From the NCBI RefSeq assembly GCF_040379285.1, contig NZ_JBEILJ010000007.1:1134-65133 (forward strand): a stretch of DNA of 64,000 nt, given 5' to 3'. Source of the DNA: Flavobacterium sp. GTDB lineage: Bacteria > Bacteroidota > Bacteroidia > Flavobacteriales > Flavobacteriaceae. The notes under the pieces were generated by a model. The model saw nothing but the letters and a program-made list of their open reading frames with translations. It did no database searches and had not been told where the DNA came from. Each line of letters begins with the position of its first letter. Position 1 is the first letter of the stretch. Made by a program: the position numbers and the translations under genes. Shown here piece by piece: positions 29,147 through 39,209 of this stretch.

Positions 29147-30613
29147 TCATCGTTTTAAAAAACGAGGCAAAAAACGATCCAATACTTCGTTTACCTCATC
29201 GGAAACGCGAAGATAATAATGGGCAAACAGATACAGTGGCGCCACTAATAAAGATTTAAATACGATGTTAATTATCGGGTGGAAAGGAAAATCCCAAGCA
29301 TAAAATAGCCCAAAAACAACCATTAAAACTACTAACGATCGAACCGTATACAGGGTAAAAGGAAAAAGTTTCAACTTCTTAACGACAAAAACAAATTTCA
29401 CCGTATTGTACAGCATGATTGTCAGTAATGTTGCCAAAGCCGAACCATTGATACCATACATAGGAATACAAATGGTATTCAAAACAATCATCAATACCAC
29501 AGTAGCCACGCCAAAAAATAAAACCATGCGGTAGTATCGGGTATTGACAATTATCGCGTTGTTATTGCCCAAAAGCACATCGTAATACTTAGAAATCCCT
29601 ATCATAAATACCACCCAAACGCCCCCGTCGTAATTATCGGGAATAATGCGATACAACATGTGGATATTGGTTAGAATTAATACCAACAATAAACCGCCAG
29701 TGATTTGCAAATTGATGGATGTTTTTTGATATAATTGTTGCAATTCATCCCATCTTTCTTGCACCATCAAGCGCGCAGTAATTGGGGATACAATTTGATT
29801 CATCGCACGGTAAGGTACTGCAATAACGGTGGCAATAAAAATAGCTACCGAATACACTGCATTGTGCGCGATAGGTAGATATTGCGGAATCATTACTTTA
29901 TCAAAATCGACCAACATAACCGCAATGCCTCCCGATACGATAATGAAGGAAGAATAATAAAATATCTCTTTAAAATTATGCGGAATTTGTAAGGCAAAAG
30001 AAGGGCGTCGCACCCGCATCGCATAAGCAAACATGACTACCGTTTGTAACGCATAAATCCCTGTAACACTGTATATAAATTGTGCCTTCGTGAGGTAATC
30101 AAAATGAAGCAAAATCAAATGAAACATGATTAAAGCCCGTCCGAAAACCTCATAAATAAAGTTGCCATAAACCGAACGTAAATGCACTTTTACCCATGCA
30201 TAAAAAACTTCAAAATAGGCCATTAGAAAACCAATAACCGGAATTAAACCGAAAAAGGGTTGTAACGAAGGATTTTCAGTCACCCAATAGGAAGCGATGC
30301 TATCGTAAAAACAGTAAAACAATACGCCAATAGGAATCATTAAGTAAAAAGGAACCAACGCCATAAATGCAAGAAAACGCTCTCGCTTGGCCTCTGAATC
30401 GTATTGAGTATAAAACCGAATGATGGTGTTTTGTGCGCCAAAAGCCATCAAGGGCATCATAATATTGGCCCCAGAAAGCAAGGTCGATACAATGCCATAA
30501 TGTTCTTTTCCTAAAAAATGGGTATAAAAAAACAAGGCATTAATCGCACCAATTCCAAAACCGAAAAAGGTAATGACGGTATTTTTAATGGATTGATTTT
30601 GAACTATTCCCAT
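29147..30613 (-). CDS. Polysaccharide flippase (Wzx/MATE-like)
   Basis: Many TM segments; MGIVQNQSIKN...; DFDKVMIP...AVYSVAIFIA. Confidence 0.85.
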   Translation of the reverse strand: MGIVQNQSIKNTVITFFGFGIGAINALFFYTHFLGKEHYGIVSTLLSGANIMMPLMAFGAQNTIIRFYTQYDSEAKRERFLAFMALVPFYLMIPIGVLFYCFYDSIASYWVTENPSLQPFFGLIPVIGFLMAYFEVFYAWVKVHLRSVYGNFIYEVFGRALIMFHLILLHFDYLTKAQFIYSVTGIYALQTVVMFAYAMRVRRPSFALQIPHNFKEIFYYSSFIIVSGGIAVMLVDFDKVMIPQYLPIAHNAVYSVAIFIATVIAVPYRAMNQIVSPITARLMVQERWDELQQLYQKTSINLQITGGLLLVLILTNIHMLYRIIPDNYDGGVWVVFMIGISKYYDVLLGNNNAIIVNTRYYRMVLFFGVATVVLMIVLNTICIPMYGINGSALATLLTIMLYNTVKFVFVVKKLKLFPFTLYTVRSLVVLMVVFGLFYAWDFPFHPIINIVFKSLLVAPLYLFAHYYLRVSDEVNEVLDRFLPRFLKR

Positions 30614-31909
30614 TTAAACGGAATGAATTAGTTGAACCAATGCTTGGGTTAGTTGCTTTCGCGAATACTGTTGGAGTCCCACGGGATGTGTCTGGAGATT
30701 ACCCGCTTGATACTGAGTGTAAAGTTCGCTAATTTTTTGCTTCAATGCGACTTTTTCCGCATAGGTAAAAAAAGTACCTGTGTTCGTAGAATTTACAATT
30801 TCGGCAAAATCAGAACCTTTCGGACCCAAAGCAACGATCGGACGACCGGAAACCATATATTCAAATAATTTTCCAGGGATAATACTGCGGGTTTCTGTCG
30901 AGTCAATTTCGATCAATAATAGAACTTGGGATTTACGCTGATGCGCTACTGCTTCGTCATGGGCTACATACCCCAAATTATTCACGTACGGATTCAGTTG
31001 ATAATGGGAAATGCTTTGCAACACTTCTTCACTGACTTTACCGATTAACTTCAAGGAAAAATCAGCAGCAAACTGTGGATTTTCATGAATAAGTTCGGCT
31101 AAAACTTCCCATAAAATAATTGGATTTCGGTCGGAAAGAAACGAACCGATGTGCGCAAGGGAAAACGAAGTATCCAACGTTTGTGGGGGTACTTGTTCGG
31201 TATCGTAGCCATTGGTGATGACTGTAATAGGTTGGGAAGTAAGCGCAGAAAATTCTTCTTTTGTGGTGGGACTCGTCACCAAAATATGATCGGCGCTTTG
31301 CAATACTTGTCGCTCCAAGTCACGATGAATTTTAGCCGCATACCTTGACAACTTTAAGGCTTTGTGGTACCCAATGGTCGTCCATGGATCACGAAAATCG
31401 GCTATCCATTTTACATTCATCGAAGCACGCAATTGCTTACCTATTAAATGCAAACTGTGCGGCGGACCCGAAGTAATGATCGTGGTAATCCCTTCTTTTT
31501 CTATATAATTTTTTAAAAAATGAACCGACGGTTTTACCCATAAAAAGCGGGCATCAGGAATAAAAATATTGCCCCGAACCCATAGCAGAAATTTTTGTAA
31601 AACCGATTGTTTTTGGGCTGCGGGTATAATCCCTGAACTGATTTTTTGAGTCGATTTTTTTGAAAACAAAGCCGCCCATTGGTAGGGCTCTCGAATTTTC
31701 TTTTTGATCACGATGGCCTTCTCCGACACTTCACGAAGCAAACCCGCATCTTGTATGGGATAACTGGGATTTTCGGGGACATACACATAAGGAATCACGT
31801 CAAAATCGGGAAGGTATTTTACAAATTTTAACCAACGCTGTACGCCTGGCCCTCCCGCAGGTGGCCAATAGTAGGTGATGATTAAAACTTTTTCCTTAGT
31901 GGTACTCAT
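30614..31909 (-). CDS. Glycosyltransferase family 4
   Basis: ITYYWPPAGGPGVQRWLK, SGPPHS, DFRDPW and IPGKLFEYM. Confidence 0.92.
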   Translation of the reverse strand: MSTTKEKVLIITYYWPPAGGPGVQRWLKFVKYLPDFDVIPYVYVPENPSYPIQDAGLLREVSEKAIVIKKKIREPYQWAALFSKKSTQKISSGIIPAAQKQSVLQKFLLWVRGNIFIPDARFLWVKPSVHFLKNYIEKEGITTIITSGPPHSLHLIGKQLRASMNVKWIADFRDPWTTIGYHKALKLSRYAAKIHRDLERQVLQSADHILVTSPTTKEEFSALTSQPITVITNGYDTEQVPPQTLDTSFSLAHIGSFLSDRNPIILWEVLAELIHENPQFAADFSLKLIGKVSEEVLQSISHYQLNPYVNNLGYVAHDEAVAHQRKSQVLLLIEIDSTETRSIIPGKLFEYMVSGRPIVALGPKGSDFAEIVNSTNTGTFFTYAEKVALKQKISELYTQYQAGNLQTHPVGLQQYSRKQLTQALVQLIHSV

Positions 31910-31912
31910 ACC

Positions 31913-34378
31913 TTACGAGGGAGAATGTTCTTTCTGTTGGCGACGGTCAAGATAAATACCCACAATGGATAACAAAACAATTAGGATAAAACTGATTAAC
32001 GATACCATGCTGCCTGTTTTTACCACTTGGGGTTCAAACGTGAACGTGATCGTGTGTTTACCCGCAGGAACAACCATACCCCGTAATGCAAAGTTTACCT
32101 TGCCATAAGCTACGGATTTTCCATCGATTTTGGCCTGCCACCCCGGTTTGTAATACATTTCAGAAAACACTACAAAACCTTCATGCTTGCTGTTGGAAAC
32201 ATAGATTAACTTATTGGGACGGTAGGCTGTGAGTTGTACACGAGCCGTGGTATCGCGCACAAATCGCGTTGGTGTGGGTTTAAATTCATTGCGATTATAA
32301 ACGGCAACCGACTTGGTTTTCAACGTATCTAAGCTTTTCATTACCGCATCATCCGAGGGTACGCCTTGAATCGAATGGACAAACCAAGCATTCCCATTGG
32401 CATTGGGATTAAGGGTGGGAAACTGCTCCCCTTTTTCATTCACTTGGATAATGTATTTGATGTTCAACATATCCAATACCTCTTTGTTATTTTTGGCAAT
32501 TTGATAGTCAAACAACTCCTGAATGGCACGGGGTTTAACAGCACTGTATCCGCCTATCGATTTGTGGAAAAAGGACGCGCGGGCACTACTCATATTGCCT
32601 TCTACATCCAATACGCGGTAGTAGGTAGTGTCTTGTAAGATTTGTTCGTCGGCGGGCGTGGCTTGAAAAGGACGATCAACCTCATGTGCGGAGACGAAAT
32701 CAGTACTATCGACATATTTTTTATCGACCAATACCAAATCAATAACCATAACGATACCGACACAGAGGATGGTATTCATAGCGCCTAATTTTACTTTGGA
32801 AAAACGCCAAAGAAACACAAAGGCTAAAGCCATTAAAAATCCGGAGCGCAACAAATCGGCGGCATACAAGGTTTCCCGATCGGCTTTTAGGGCGTCGATA
32901 AAACCTATACCGAATGATTTATCTTGTCCTTCACTAAACATGCGAAGTAAATCCGCATCCAAAGTCCCCGAAAAATTAAAACTGCTTTTGAGGAAAAAAA
33001 TTAGCAGCAAAATACCCAAACAAGTCAGTCCTGCTTTCTTCAAATTATTCCATCGCTTTTCGGGCTCAGTGGTCATAAACGCATGGAGTCCCATAATTGC
33101 CAATACCGGTATACACAATTCCAAAACGACTTGAATTGAAGATACCGCGCGAAACTTATCGTACAAAGGAACATAATCGATAAAAAAGTCGGTTAAGGCT
33201 GGGAAATTTCTCCCCCATGACAGCAGCAACGATACCAAAGCTCCACCAAAAAAAACCCATTTAAGCTGACGTTTGTCATGATACAAGGCCAAAACAAAAA
33301 GAAAGAAAACAACGGCTCCGATATAGGCAGGTGCGGCAACAATGGGTTGCTCTCCCCAATAGGTTCGCGCATACGCATCGGTAAACTGGCGGGCTTCTGA
33401 CTCGGTTGCCCCATAGTTCAACATGAATTGATACACGCTCGAATCGTCGCTTAACTTTTCGTCGTTACCTCCACCAAACAATCGGGGAGCGATAAGATTT
33501 AAACTCTCGGCAATTCCGTAACTGTACTCTGTAATATAACTTCGGTCAAGAGTGGCCTTATCGGTTTTGGGCTTTCCGTCGGGTTCCAATTGCAAGGCAC
33601 TCTTTCCACGGGTACTAAATTGCGCATATTCTTGGGTAGCGAGAAGTGACGTGGCATTGGCCCCTATCGCTAGAATTAAAGTGATGGCAAAGGTGGCAAC
33701 GGTTTTCCCTAAGGCCGAAAAGTCCTTTTCGCGCAGCATTTTGATACCGTAATAAATGCCCAATCCTAAAAGTACGATGAGCAAATAGTAGGTCATTTGA
33801 AAGTGATTGGCATTGATTTCGAGCGCAACTGCAAAAAGCGTTAAAATGCCCCCCCACAAATACCGTTTTTGAAACACCCATAAAACACCGGCTACGACCA
33901 ACGGCATGTAGGCGATTGCATGGGCTTTGGCGTTGTGTCCCACACCCAAAATGATAATCAAATAGGTTGAAAAACCAAAAGCTAAAGCCCCAAAGAAGGC
34001 CTTCAACGGATCGGTTTTAAGCACGAGCATTAGCACGTAAAACCCAATAAAATAAAGCCATAAATAATCGGCAGGACGCGGTAAAAAACGCAATATATCG
34101 TCGATTGCACCGATGTAATCGTGAGGGTATTTTGCCCCCAATTGGTAGGTGGGCATTCCCCCAAAAGCACTATTGGTCCAATACGGCTCGGTATCATAGG
34201 TAGCGCGAAAATCATTTTGCTCCTTGGCCATACCCGTATATTGTACGATATCGCTTTGATAAATTTTTCTTCCTTGTAAAATGGGATAAAAATAGAATAC
34301 AGCTATGAGGATAAATCCCGAAATGGCTAACAAATGAGGATATCCTTTTTGAAGGTATGCTTGAATTTTTTGCATCAT
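31913..34378 (-). CDS. YfhO family membrane (GT-C-like) protein
   Basis: WTNSAFGGMPTYQ, NHFQMTYY, YDKFRA and FSEMYY...GWQAKIDG. Confidence 0.9.
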   Translation of the reverse strand: MMQKIQAYLQKGYPHLLAISGFILIAVFYFYPILQGRKIYQSDIVQYTGMAKEQNDFRATYDTEPYWTNSAFGGMPTYQLGAKYPHDYIGAIDDILRFLPRPADYLWLYFIGFYVLMLVLKTDPLKAFFGALAFGFSTYLIIILGVGHNAKAHAIAYMPLVVAGVLWVFQKRYLWGGILTLFAVALEINANHFQMTYYLLIVLLGLGIYYGIKMLREKDFSALGKTVATFAITLILAIGANATSLLATQEYAQFSTRGKSALQLEPDGKPKTDKATLDRSYITEYSYGIAESLNLIAPRLFGGGNDEKLSDDSSVYQFMLNYGATESEARQFTDAYARTYWGEQPIVAAPAYIGAVVFFLFVLALYHDKRQLKWVFFGGALVSLLLSWGRNFPALTDFFIDYVPLYDKFRAVSSIQVVLELCIPVLAIMGLHAFMTTEPEKRWNNLKKAGLTCLGILLLIFFLKSSFNFSGTLDADLLRMFSEGQDKSFGIGFIDALKADRETLYAADLLRSGFLMALAFVFLWRFSKVKLGAMNTILCVGIVMVIDLVLVDKKYVDSTDFVSAHEVDRPFQATPADEQILQDTTYYRVLDVEGNMSSARASFFHKSIGGYSAVKPRAIQELFDYQIAKNNKEVLDMLNIKYIIQVNEKGEQFPTLNPNANGNAWFVHSIQGVPSDDAVMKSLDTLKTKSVAVYNRNEFKPTPTRFVRDTTARVQLTAYRPNKLIYVSNSKHEGFVVFSEMYYKPGWQAKIDGKSVAYGKVNFALRGMVVPAGKHTITFTFEPQVVKTGSMVSLISFILIVLLSIVGIYLDRRQQKEHSPS

Positions 34379-34646: not shown

Positions 34647-34758
34647 GGGTATAAATTTTGTCAAAAATACTAAAAACCATATAGGAAATCATGGTGTAGG
34701 TCATAAATAAATAATAAAAAGTGTACTTTTGGGTCACCTAACCCACAACTAATTGACC

Positions 34759-35742
34759 ATGAAATCCACCCATTTACATCTGTTGGTTCTCACCCTTGGC
34801 TCATTACTCACCCATGCGCAGTATACGGATGAAATCAACACCAATCGTCCCGGCGAATCGATGAATGCTTATGCGGTTGGAAAACGTGTCCTACAATTTG
34901 AGTCGGGATTTAGCTACAGTCAGGAACAATTTGACCGTAATGCCTTCAATACCGAAGGATATTTGGTGAGTTTGACCACGCGTTATGGATTTTTTAAAGA
35001 GGAATTGGAAGGGATTTTAGAAATGACCTACCAAAACGACAGCTACTTTTCACCGGCGGGCAATTTTCATCGAGACGGCTTCCGACGGGTTCTTTTGGGA
35101 TTTAAATATTTGATTTATGATCCGTTTAAAAACTATGATGCCAAACCCAACTTATACAGCTGGAAAGCCAACCATAAATTCAATTGGCGCATGATGATTC
35201 CAGCGGTATCGGTTTATGCGGGAACCAATATTAAAGTGGGGAATTATCCTTTTATGTATCCCGGCGAATCTTATGGTACTTTTAGTCCAAAAGTGATGTT
35301 GATTTCTCAAAATGTATTTTCTGGAGCTTGGGCTTTTGTAACGAATACCTTTGTAGACAAAATTGCCTCCAACAACCAAACTGTGGGATTCATTGGAACC
35401 ATTACCAAAGGATTTGATCGTTGGTCGGGATTTATTGAAGGAAAAATGCTCAGCGGAGGCTATTACAGCGATGTGTTTATGACCGCAGGAGCAGCCTATT
35501 TATGGGGAACGAGTTTTCAAGTCGATGCGTTTATCAGTCAAAACATGAAAAATACCCCTTCGATTACATACGCTGGTTTGGGCGTTTCGTGGCGAACGGA
35601 TACGTATTATGAAGACAATTTGATTCGCGCTCCCAAAAAAGAAGAAAAGAAAAAGAAAAAAACCAAAGGCGAGAAGAAAAAAGAAAAAGAGAAAGAAAAA
35701 CTAAAAAAACGTTTGGACGAAGTTCCCACAGCAAAACCTTAA
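34759..35742 (+). CDS. Outer-membrane transporter-like beta-barrel (MetA-pathway/Phenol_MetA_deg-like)
   Basis: Signal peptide; INTNRPGES...VGKRVLQFESG; Lys-rich tail. Confidence 0.75.
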   Translation: MKSTHLHLLVLTLGSLLTHAQYTDEINTNRPGESMNAYAVGKRVLQFESGFSYSQEQFDRNAFNTEGYLVSLTTRYGFFKEELEGILEMTYQNDSYFSPAGNFHRDGFRRVLLGFKYLIYDPFKNYDAKPNLYSWKANHKFNWRMMIPAVSVYAGTNIKVGNYPFMYPGESYGTFSPKVMLISQNVFSGAWAFVTNTFVDKIASNNQTVGFIGTITKGFDRWSGFIEGKMLSGGYYSDVFMTAGAAYLWGTSFQVDAFISQNMKNTPSITYAGLGVSWRTDTYYEDNLIRAPKKEEKKKKKTKGEKKKEKEKEKLKKRLDEVPTAKP

Positions 35743-35746
35743 TACG

Positions 35747-36865
35747 ATGATTACCCTTATAGAAGTCAATTCAAAAGCCTTATTTCGCGAATTTGTCACC
35801 TTTCCGTTTCGTTTGTATAAAAACGATCCCAACTGGGTGCCGCCCTTGATTGAAGACGAATTGGCCACGTTGGATGCATCAAAAAACCCCGCTTTTGACC
35901 AAGCTGAAGCCTTGTTTTACTTGGCGCAACGCGAGGGAATAACCGTGGGTCGCATTGCAGCGATTATCAATTGGGAAGAAGTGAACAACCAAAAGAAACG
36001 CAAGGTCCGCTTCGGATGGTGGGATGTTATTGATGATCTTTCGGTGACGGAAGCACTTTTAGAAAAAGTATATGCTTTGGGAAAAAAACATGACCTTACC
36101 TATGTAGAGGGTCCGATGGGTTTTTCTAATTTGGATAAAGTTGGCGTGGTCACCGAGGGATTTGACCGTTTGGCTTCCATGATTACCTGGTATAATTATC
36201 CTTACTTCAAAACGCATTTGGAACACTTGGGATTTGTTAAAGAAAAAGAATACCTAGAAAATGTGTTTTCATTTAAAAGTATCGAAATCGAACCGTATCG
36301 AAAAGCAAGTACCTTGATACAAAAGCGTTACCAAGTGGTGTGCAAAAATTTCAATAAAACGGCAGAAATAATGCCTTATGTTGATGAAATGTTTGATTTG
36401 TTTAACAAAGCTTATGCCTCCTTAGCCTCTTTTGTAGCGATTAATGCTAAGCAAAAGGAATATTTTAAAAAAAAATACATTAGTTTAATCAAACCCGAGT
36501 ACATCAAGTTTGTTTTTGATAATGCTGGAAAACTAATCGCTTTTGGAATTGTAATGCCGAATCTATCCGCAGCAATGAAAAAAGCTAATGGTAAACTGTT
36601 TCCTTTTGGGTTTTATTACCTGTTGAAAGCGCAAAAAAAACACGAAGAAGTTTTATTTTATCTCATTGGAGTTGATCCCGATTATCAAAACAAAGGAGTA
36701 ACCGCCTTAATTTTTGAAGCGTATTATGATTCCTTCCAAAAAAATGGGGTACAAACTTGTGTTCGTACCCCAGAATTAGAGGAGAATACGGCCATTCATA
36801 ACATCTGGAAGAACTTCAACCCAACCGTTTTCAGACGCAGAAGGACCTATAAAAAATATTTATAA
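35747..36865 (+). CDS. GNAT-fold acyltransferase, YghO / bacterial ceramide synthase-like
   Basis: FPFRLYKNDPNWVPPL, VGRIAAIIN, RFGWWDVIDD, GPMGFSNLD and GVDPDYQNKG. Confidence 0.75.
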   Translation: MITLIEVNSKALFREFVTFPFRLYKNDPNWVPPLIEDELATLDASKNPAFDQAEALFYLAQREGITVGRIAAIINWEEVNNQKKRKVRFGWWDVIDDLSVTEALLEKVYALGKKHDLTYVEGPMGFSNLDKVGVVTEGFDRLASMITWYNYPYFKTHLEHLGFVKEKEYLENVFSFKSIEIEPYRKASTLIQKRYQVVCKNFNKTAEIMPYVDEMFDLFNKAYASLASFVAINAKQKEYFKKKYISLIKPEYIKFVFDNAGKLIAFGIVMPNLSAAMKKANGKLFPFGFYYLLKAQKKHEEVLFYLIGVDPDYQNKGVTALIFEAYYDSFQKNGVQTCVRTPELEENTAIHNIWKNFNPTVFRRRRTYKKYL

Positions 36866-37624
36866 TTATTCTCCGAGATAAATAAATCCATTCGCTGCCA
36901 TATAAGGGTTTTGAATGTTTAGAGATTCTTGAGTAACACCACCATTAATAGAAGAAGTGGTATGTGAATGCGATCCGCTTGAGGTGGTTTGTGCTGTATT
37001 CGTTGAGGCATTCAACAGTTGAAAGGTAATACCACCTGTAAGATTTAAGTTGTAACTCCCCACAGAACCAGCTCCATGGGTATGCGCGCCATTGGTAGAG
37101 GTTGAGAGCGTAACATCGGGTAATTGATTTTGAGAAATGGTCACGGTTGAATTACCACCATAAAAACCAAGAGGTTTACTAACACTCGAACCTACTAAAG
37201 TTTTATCCGATAAATTTGGTATGCTCTCACCAAACCCTAAAAGTGTGGCAGCCGCTTGTTGTGAAGGTGTTAATGCGCTAACAGAACGACCGTTTAACAA
37301 CACCCAACCTTGATGATCGGTCGTTTTGAGACTGTATTTCATGTCACCAAAATCGTGTACTTGTTGATAGATGGCAAGCCATTTGACACCATCATAATAG
37401 TAATAGCGATTGACAGTTGTAAAATACACCAATTGTCCCGCACGATTTCCTGTGGTAGGCAGGGCGTCCACTTGTGGAATAGCAATTCCCGCAGCTGCAT
37501 CAGGTGCACTGGGATTGGTTGTTCGAACATCTAAATCGGCTTGCGGATCTGTGGTTCCGATACCAACTTGTGCAAAAGATACACTTGTTGCAAAAAAACT
37601 GATAAGTAGTAATTTTTGTTTCAT
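36866..37624 (-). CDS. Secreted QVGIGT-type protein with C-terminal phage tail-collar-like domain
   Basis: Signal peptide + AQVGIGTTDP; GDMKYS...DHQGWVLLNGR, GGNSTVTISQNQLP, GAHTH, GSHSH and QNPYMAANGFIYLG. Confidence 0.65.
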   Translation of the reverse strand: MKQKLLLISFFATSVSFAQVGIGTTDPQADLDVRTTNPSAPDAAAGIAIPQVDALPTTGNRAGQLVYFTTVNRYYYYDGVKWLAIYQQVHDFGDMKYSLKTTDHQGWVLLNGRSVSALTPSQQAAATLLGFGESIPNLSDKTLVGSSVSKPLGFYGGNSTVTISQNQLPDVTLSTSTNGAHTHGAGSVGSYNLNLTGGITFQLLNASTNTAQTTSSGSHSHTTSSINGGVTQESLNIQNPYMAANGFIYLGE

Positions 37625-37949
37625 AGTAGTTCAATTTTGAAACTCAGAATTAGGGCTTTTGAGTAGGTTAAACATTTTTTTTTACTGCTGAATACCATTC
37701 GCTTTAAACGAGTATATTGTATTGTTATCAGGGTAAATCGTATTCAAATGTAGAATTATCCTACAAAGTAAAAAAACTTTTTATCGGTTAAATACTATAA
37801 TTTTCGACGAAATGAGTTTAATGTTATTTTTTGTAAGTATTTTCGTATTTTACAAAAAGCAATAAATGATTGGTGATAAAAGTGTGAAATAAAAAAATCC
37901 ACCCCGAAGGATGGACTTTTTATAGAGCATAAAAATTTATTTTTGTTGG

Positions 37950-39209
37950 TTACGATACATCAACCGTAGTGGCTTCCGCGATTTGTTTGTAGGTTCCGTT
38001 TTCTAACTTTTCACGGATAGCTTCAAAAGCGGCTAATGTTTCATCAATATCTTTTTTTGTATGGGAAGCTGTAGGTATCATACGCAATAGAATAATCCCC
38101 TTAGGAATTACAGGATACACCACAATAGAGAGGAATATATTATAATTTTCTCGCAAATCATTCACCATAACCATCGCTTCTGGAATTGAGCCTTCCAAAT
38201 ATACCGGAGTTACACAGGTATTGGTATCACCAATATTAAAACCGCGACTCGTCAATCCATTTTGCAAATAATTAACATTTTCCCATAGCTTATCTTTCAA
38301 CTCAGGCATGGTGCGCAACATTTCCAAACGTTTCAAAGCTCCAACGGTCATAATCATAGGTAAAGACTTGGCAAACATTTGAGAACGAAGGTTATATTTT
38401 AAATAATCAATCACGTCTTGGTCGGCGGCTACAAAGGCACCAATACTGGCCATTGATTTGGCAAACGTAGAGAAATAGACATCAATTGCATCCTGGCACC
38501 CTTGCTCTTCCCCTGCCCCGGCACCTGTTTTTCCTAACGTTCCAAAACCATGAGCATCGTCAACTAACAATCGGAAGTTGTACTTAGACTTCAAGTCGAC
38601 AATTTCTTTGATCTTTCCTTGTTGTCCACGCATACCAAAAACACCTTCAGTAATGACGAGAATACCTCCGCCATTTTCTTCCGCCATTTTGGTAGCCCGT
38701 TGTAAGTTTTTTTCCAAACTCTCAACATCATTGTGCTTGTAGGTAAAACGTTTTCCCATGTGCAAACGCACGCCATCAATAATACAACCGTGCGAATCGA
38801 CATCGTAGACAATCACATCGTTTTTGGTCACTAATGCATCGATAATCGACACCATTCCTTGGTAACCAAAATTCAATAAATAAGCCGCTTCTTTTTGGAC
38901 AAAAGTCGCCAGTTCATTTTGCAATTGTTCGTGTAATGTGGTATGACCACTCATCATACGTGCCCCCATCGGGTAAGCGGCACCGAATTGTTGTGCTGCT
39001 TCCGTATCTACTTTGCGAATTTCGGGATGATTGGCTAAACCTAAGTAATCATTAATACTCCAGTTTAAAATTTCTTTTCCTTGAAACTGCATTCGAGGCC
39101 CTAATTCACCTTCCAGCTTTGGAAAAACATAATACCCCTCTGCTTGAGAAGCCCATCGCCCTAACGGCCCTTTATTTTGTTGAATTCGTTCAAATAAATC
39201 TTTTACCAT
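37950..39209 (-). CDS. PLP-dependent alpha-oxoamine synthase (serine palmitoyltransferase / cysteate acyltransferase-like)
   Basis: NDYLGLA, GARMMSG, DSHGCIIDG, DDAHGFG and STFAKS (PLP Lys). Confidence 0.85.
   Translation of the reverse strand: MVKDLFERIQQNKGPLGRWASQAEGYYVFPKLEGELGPRMQFQGKEILNWSINDYLGLANHPEIRKVDTEAAQQFGAAYPMGARMMSGHTTLHEQLQNELATFVQKEAAYLLNFGYQGMVSIIDALVTKNDVIVYDVDSHGCIIDGVRLHMGKRFTYKHNDVESLEKNLQRATKMAEENGGGILVITEGVFGMRGQQGKIKEIVDLKSKYNFRLLVDDAHGFGTLGKTGAGAGEEQGCQDAIDVYFSTFAKSMASIGAFVAADQDVIDYLKYNLRSQMFAKSLPMIMTVGALKRLEMLRTMPELKDKLWENVNYLQNGLTSRGFNIGDTNTCVTPVYLEGSIPEAMVMVNDLRENYNIFLSIVVYPVIPKGIILLRMIPTASHTKKDIDETLAAFEAIREKLENGTYKQIAEATTVDVS

Follow-up and report, generated by a model that had tools for sequence, protein, structure and literature searches.

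Two described systems stand closest to the locus analyzed here, the bacterial ceramide synthases (bCerS) and the capnine pathway. The bCerS proteins, known from Caulobacter (CC_1154 = CCNA_01212), Bacteroides fragilis (BF9343_4218) and Escherichia coli B (YghO), are soluble tandem-GNAT enzymes of ~375 amino acids (aa) whose genes are tied to an alpha-oxoamine synthase (AOS) making a long-chain base. The capnine pathway of Capnocytophaga, Chryseobacterium, Alistipes and Flavobacterium johnsoniae (Fjoh_2419) involves CapA, CapB (also named CFAT or SulA) and CapC (KCR), and its published assignments cover steps 1-3, namely a cysteate synthase, a condensing enzyme and a ketoreductase. The N-acylation step of sulfonolipid synthesis has been described but given no gene in the searchable literature, a scope outside which subscription journals lie. 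Here we examined a 64,000-nucleotide (nt) stretch of the genome of Flavobacterium sp. (contig NZ_JBEILJ010000007.1, positions 1,134 to 65,133; hereafter the window), in which the gene for a 419-aa pyridoxal phosphate (PLP) enzyme converges with the gene for a 372-aa GNAT protein. This analysis identified the 419-aa gene, with near certainty, as a cysteate-C-fatty acyltransferase (CFAT), the first committed enzyme of capnine synthesis, for which cysteate condensation itself is predicted by homology. The GNAT emerged as the likely, though by no means assured, N-acyltransferase of capnine or 3-ketocapnine, an activity we infer from homology and gene context.

To place the 419-aa enzyme, it was compared with solved structures. 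This analysis revealed scores of 749 bits (E = 8e-225) against the CFAT of Capnocytophaga ochracea (28EH) and 583 bits against Alistipes SulA (7U7H), compared with 237 bits against Sphingobacterium Spt (3A2B), 202 bits against Kbl and 148 bits against BioF; the CFAT structures outscored Spt two- to threefold. Together with a PF00155 match, these scores bear out the assignment to the AOS family made in an earlier note on this DNA and group the enzyme with CFAT/CapB/SulA. The outcome that the same note had named as damaging to its proposal, grouping with BioF or Kbl, was not seen. The residues that form the PLP-cysteate pocket in COCFAT have been listed as N52, G81, A82, F113-G114-Y115, H139, C141, E187, D216, F245, T247, A249, K250, M277, F278 and K280 (PMC13692747). 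In the HMMER alignment 16 of 16 cysteate-pocket residues were identical in the 419-aa enzyme, at query numbering +1, and both the PLP lysine K251 and K281 were kept. K281 of SulA, a lysine contributed by the neighboring protomer, is the proposed marker of SulA versus Spt (Radka et al., PMC9304779). No NCBIfam equivalog was reached; the top model was the CFB serine palmitoyltransferase, at 300.7 bits versus a cut-off of 640.

This last match speaks for a reading in which the pair makes serine-derived ceramide, the AOS filling the role of Spt and the GNAT that of a canonical ceramide synthase, yet its score lies far under the cut-off. The two- to threefold advantage of the CFAT structures and the retention of the cysteate pocket, including the diagnostic lysine, argue against it, as does the fact that no gene of the source genome (2.6 Mb, 99% complete) or of the 28 Flavobacteriaceae sampled reached an Spt-like score. 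We consider this reading highly improbable. The other AOS genes of the genome, away from the locus, were a Kbl (692 bits, above its cut-off) and a BioF-like gene, and CFAT is the sole long-chain-base synthase. The earlier note had proposed that the GNAT performs N-acylation for capnine/sulfobacin or for ceramide. Given that the search of the source genome turned up no Spt, ceramide is a very unlikely product. A capnine-type sulfonolipid is the fitting product, and this part of the proposal draws support from the linkage of the family to Spt operons, the adjacency to CFAT and the co-occurrence in Flavobacteriales described below.

The source genome carries a capA-like PLP gene, which may provide the cysteate supply. 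This PALP gene lies on contig C2 and is 76% identical to the gene directly upstream of CFAT in another genome (G219). The capA-like gene is directly upstream of CFAT in sister genera, whereas in the source genome it is not beside CFAT. We also observed CFAT frames of 460-630 aa in six genomes (G007, L053:4455-6245; G039, G335, G155, G255 and G424), with an N-terminal extension of up to ~220 residues. The one extension scanned, that of G007, had no Pfam match. Such extensions could represent fused domains or result from a wrongly placed start.

The GNAT had been likened in the earlier note to the Caulobacter bCerS family. Pfam gave a sub-threshold match to Acetyltransf_1 in the C-terminal third of the protein (residues 247-341; 20.2 bits versus a cut-off of 20.7), and NCBIfam contained no model for it. 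The link to bCerS was established via YghO, since yghO of E. coli BL21 (ECD_02850) corresponds to CC_1154 of Caulobacter, which encodes the N-acyltransferase CerS/bCerS (PMC9386255). In BL21(DE3) the neighborhood of yghO contains genes for a fatty acyl-AMP ligase, an epimerase-type reductase and an acyl carrier protein, together with spt. End-to-end alignment of the GNAT with BL21 YghO revealed 28% identity over 379 aa (E = 2e-42), and this full-length homology upholds the suggested likeness. Identity to a family member adjoining an Spt-like gene was 35% (E = 2e-80), and YghO scored 315 bits against a profile of the window GNAT family. The GNAT almost certainly belongs to the bCerS/YghO family. 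It is a member by descent but probably not a strict ceramide synthase, because the genome has no Spt and the neighboring gene encodes CFAT. The family comprises 2,809 clusters at 50% identity (E up to 1e-30), and the window GNAT is its one member in the source genome.

An AlphaFold2 (AF2) model built from a 140-sequence alignment (pLDDT 96.9, pTM 0.92) replaced a single-sequence model of pLDDT 37. The top Foldseek matches of the alignment-based model were tandem GNAT amine acyltransferases, namely 2WPW (clavulanic acid), 5KF1 (glucosamine N-acetyltransferase), 7Q3A (MAB_4324) and the mycothiol synthase MshD (1OZP). All share the two fused GNAT domains (Foldseek probability 1.0, TM ~0.6), but they are 10-14% identical to the window GNAT, and their substrates are acetyl-CoA and small soluble amines instead of long acyl chains and lipid acceptors. 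The C-terminal domain of the GNAT contains the acyl-CoA-binding motif Q314-N-K-G317, of which at least 90% of the 140 homologues retain G317.

Naming and domain annotation of the family were also examined. PF04339 (FemAB_like) was considered as the Pfam model for bCerS and rejected; it was found in Caulobacter but not in B. thetaiotaomicron or the source genome, and YghO had no Pfam hit. The ESM Atlas returned only the GNAT's own family, auto-named 'putative GTP cyclohydrolase', and many Flavobacterium orthologues are named 'GTP cyclohydrolase' in NCBI and UniRef. This name looks like an annotation error. One clade-C member (see below) lies beside a real folE gene (G211, L088:6212-6877), a possible origin of the mislabel. 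Several family representatives are long (505-784 aa; P0123, at 784 aa, P0131, P0132, P0205 and P0242). P0123 and P0242 each match in two stretches, and P0123 may be a tandem duplication; P0131, P0132 and P0205 carry additional N- or C-terminal regions, possibly fusions that hint at partners.

To determine how the family is linked to long-chain-base synthesis, 401 Bacteroidota genomes were searched. Of these, 383 contained a member of the GNAT family, 152 a CFAT orthologue and 309 an Spt or Spt-like AOS. In more than 35 genomes from many lineages a family gene lay directly downstream of an Spt or Spt-like gene on the same strand. The Spt-GNAT pair was present in 5 of 5 Spt-positive Bacteroidia checked, gene coordinates gave more than 25 further pairs, and in one genome (G063) a true Spt (674 bits, cut-off 640) overlapped the GNAT gene by 4 nt. 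Such pairing is the signature expected of an enzyme acylating the Spt product, and it agrees with the accumulation of 3-ketosphinganine in a B. fragilis cerS knock-out (bioRxiv 10.1101/2023.05.23.541633). The association was not found for the window GNAT itself, in a genome without Spt. Two loci are recorded as side observations. In one Bacteroidia genome (G107:C3:207852-211758) CFAT itself converges with a true Spt (675 bits) ~1.5 kb away, and the only full-length GNAT of that genome, a clade-C member, is on another contig. In BL21(DE3) the yghO-led cluster (L055, 2989282-2999842) has lptF and lptG paralogues downstream of spt, which fit the Lpt-like sphingolipid transport in Caulobacter described in the abstract of a 2026 preprint (10.64898/2026.04.12.717747).

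The genes of the locus, in window coordinates, are as follows:
34753-35742, plus strand: outer-membrane beta-barrel protein with an N-terminal signal-like segment; PF13557 (Phenol_MetA_deg), Pfam E = 1e-26.
35747-36865, plus strand: tandem-GNAT acyltransferase of the bCerS/YghO family, 372 aa, by YghO alignment and AF2 fold; clade B.
36866-37624, minus strand: predicted exported protein, 252 aa, with a signal peptide and a tail-collar-like C-terminal part.
37950-39209, minus strand: CFAT / CapB / SulA, the 419-aa PLP enzyme; PF00155, PDB matches 28EH and 7U7H.

The GNAT start lies 4 nt past the barrel stop, so the co-orientation and 4-nt gap given in the earlier note agree with the open reading frame (ORF) coordinates. 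The two genes are probably co-transcribed, because only these 4 nt separate them. The neighbor picture in that note was correct for the ORFs it described and omitted the 252-aa ORF, which lies inside the 1,084 nt between the convergent CFAT and GNAT genes. The 252-aa protein had no Pfam, NCBIfam or PDB match, and its gene was seen in the source genome only when ~30 related loci were compared; it is a variable-slot occupant between GNAT and CFAT, outside the pathway. In another Flavobacterium (G339) the slot holds an unrelated 183-aa lipoprotein-like gene (L008:844-1395), and almost no CFAT-GNAT gap exists in 2 of 12 Flavobacterium loci examined (G123 and G095) and in other genera. A strong minus-strand terminator-like hairpin (36745-36772), with a 12-bp stem that includes 6 G-C pairs and a T run after it, lies inside the 3' coding end of the GNAT gene, ~95 nt past the stop of the 252-aa gene, and its stem encodes 'NGVQTCVRTP' on the plus strand. 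From its position, the convergent minus-strand transcript would terminate within the GNAT ORF. A sigma-70 promoter scan found sites no commoner than in shuffled sequence, with a consensus unsuited to Bacteroidota promoters. Upstream of the barrel (29147-34378, minus strand) is a glycan module comprising genes for an 821-aa YfhO-like membrane protein, a glycosyltransferase of family GT4 and a flippase of the polysaccharide type.

Co-localization, one of the checks put forward in the earlier note, was then examined across Flavobacteriaceae. GNAT and CFAT were convergent neighbors in 17 of the 27 genomes having both, representing 9 genera, and the same convergent adjacency was found in a genome from another Flavobacteriales family (G428). 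A GNAT located 7 kb from CFAT in one distant lineage (f31, g104) was part of a separate lipid operon and was not counted. The gap between the two genes was 50-130 nt in most genera and ~700 nt in most Flavobacterium with an adjacent pair, where it holds unrelated small exported-protein genes. In other genera a capA-like PLP gene followed by CFAT faced GNAT and the barrel. A barrel orthologue was identified upstream of GNAT in 27 Flavobacteriaceae loci.

Co-occurrence was scored in 186 Flavobacteriales genomes; both genes were present in 98 and neither in 56, with CFAT only in 22 and GNAT only in 10. Six of the 10 GNAT-only genomes were less than 90% complete, and one (G407) was 99% complete. 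Because related genomes are not independent samples, the counts overstate the evidence, and the useful part lies in contrasts within families. In family f59, 4 of the 5 genomes with CFAT also had GNAT, against 0 of the 14 without CFAT; for family f70 the corresponding numbers were 2 of 5 and 0 of 14. Neither gene was found in f68 and f71.

The structure of the family was analyzed using a maximum-likelihood tree of 54 members, which resolved three clades. Clade A united YghO with the genes that adjoin Spt. The window gene fell into clade B (SH-aLRT 100), along with every Flavobacteriaceae copy and a mixed set of further members. Clade C (SH-aLRT 100) was divergent and present in 46 genomes of the class Bacteroidia, 45 of them CFAT-positive, and in 0 of 28 Flavobacteriaceae; its gene neighborhoods were housekeeping and uninformative. 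Genomes with both Spt and CFAT often had one clade-A copy beside Spt and one or two clade-C copies elsewhere. Clade-B genes from CFAT-free genomes sit in sphingolipid-type contexts; a PAP2_3 gene follows in G231, an epimerase-type reductase is nearby in G325, and the G096 copy shares an operon with genes for a Glyco_transf_21-like GT2, an SDR, a FabA-like dehydratase and a KAS. Clade-specific positions in Flavobacteriaceae were K241, K243 and R365, none of them common with clade C. A tentative picture, which we put forward as possible and somewhat doubtful, is that Bacteroidota hold three bCerS clades and that sulfonolipid N-acylation was adopted twice, by clade B with the barrel in Flavobacteriaceae and by clade C in other Bacteroidia orders. 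The former would form a module for acylation plus outer-membrane handling, because the barrel stays at the capA-CFAT locus even after GNAT loss.

Several observations weigh against a role of the GNAT in capnine N-acylation. CFAT and GNAT share no transcript, and one ancient event, passed on by descent, may account for their adjacency. Even a profile search detected no family member in G091 and G115, two complete Flavobacteriaceae genomes with capA-CFAT; in G091 GNAT is cleanly gone and the barrel is kept facing CFAT (36% identity, E = 3e-61). In family f66, CFAT was present in 5 of 7 genomes and GNAT in 0 of 7, as judged with a single-protein query. Clade B is common in Spt-like, CFAT-free genomes (f32 and f8), the divergent clade C tracks CFAT outside Flavobacteriaceae, and family f2 carries both, so that either clade could acylate capnine there. 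Residues conserved in the groups linked to CFAT, but not in the clade linked to Spt, included no basic sulfonate-binding position common to clades B and C.

Part of this evidence would also be explained if the GNAT acylates another amine-bearing lipid or metabolite, its adjacency to CFAT is inherited synteny, and capnine is acylated by a non-homologous enzyme such as an N-acyltransferase of the OlsB/GlsB type. The convergent orientation, the occurrence of clade B without CFAT and the CFAT-positive genomes that have no GNAT all fit this explanation, as does the fact that the conserved operon partner of GNAT is the barrel and not CFAT. It is harder to reconcile with the tie between the family and long-chain-base synthases across many independent lineages, with the failure to find GNAT in the CFAT-negative genomes of f59 and f70 or in f68 and f71, and with a source genome that holds no other long-chain-base synthase. 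On this balance we judge it unlikely, if far from negligible. The separate transcription of GNAT and CFAT, and the loss of GNAT in G091 with capA-CFAT retained, would further suit a salvage or remodeling role, in which the GNAT re-acylates free capnine from turnover or swaps acyl chains and the de novo step lies elsewhere. One paper notes that bacterial cerS never shares an operon with the de novo genes and raises a salvage role for it (PMC11324152). The genome has no second family member, however, and this reading would thus require a non-homologous enzyme for the de novo step. Sequence does not tell the two roles apart, and we regard salvage as distinctly improbable.

De novo N-acylation of capnine or 3-ketocapnine remains the reading we prefer, in which the locus would supply two steps of the synthesis of a sulfonolipid of the N-acyl-capnine, sulfobacin type. 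By homology, CFAT would condense cysteate and a fatty acyl thioester to 3-ketocapnine. The tandem GNAT, predicted to be cytoplasmic, would move a second fatty acyl chain from acyl-CoA or acyl-ACP onto the free amine of 3-ketocapnine or capnine, mirroring the action of bCerS on 3-ketosphinganine; sequence cannot order N-acylation and keto-reduction. The barrel may, more speculatively, contribute to the positioning or handling of the lipid at the outer membrane. Compared with bCerS, the window GNAT belongs to the same family over its full length and is predicted to perform the same chemistry, N-acylation of a 2-amino-3-keto (or 3-hydroxy) long-chain base. It differs in its position in a well-supported clade apart from the Spt-adjacent clade with YghO, in its probable co-transcription with an outer-membrane barrel, and in its partner, which is a cysteate-using CFAT and not Spt. 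Its predicted acceptor therefore has a sulfonate in place of the hydroxyl. With respect to the capnine pathway, in which the 419-aa gene is a close CapB/CFAT orthologue, the GNAT is a candidate for the N-acyltransferase leading from capnine to sulfobacin-type lipids. The new elements of this work are the YghO-based family test, the three-clade structure, the co-occurrence of clade C with CFAT, and the co-occurrence and loss cases in Flavobacteriales.

Sulfonolipids are required for efficient gliding in Flavobacterium and Cytophaga, and related lipids either induce or inhibit the formation of rosettes in choanoflagellates; those made by Alistipes in the gut act on TLR4. The GNAT adds to the three assigned enzymes a specific and testable candidate for the N-acyltransferase of the two-chain lipid. 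The three-clade picture also cautions against naming every bCerS homologue a ceramide synthase. The candidate occurs in Flavobacterium, a genus open to genetic manipulation, and would permit reconstruction of the complete pathway in E. coli. The gene would let capnine and N-acyl-capnine be told apart in motility and signaling phenotypes, and would allow N-acylation potential to be scored in metagenomes.

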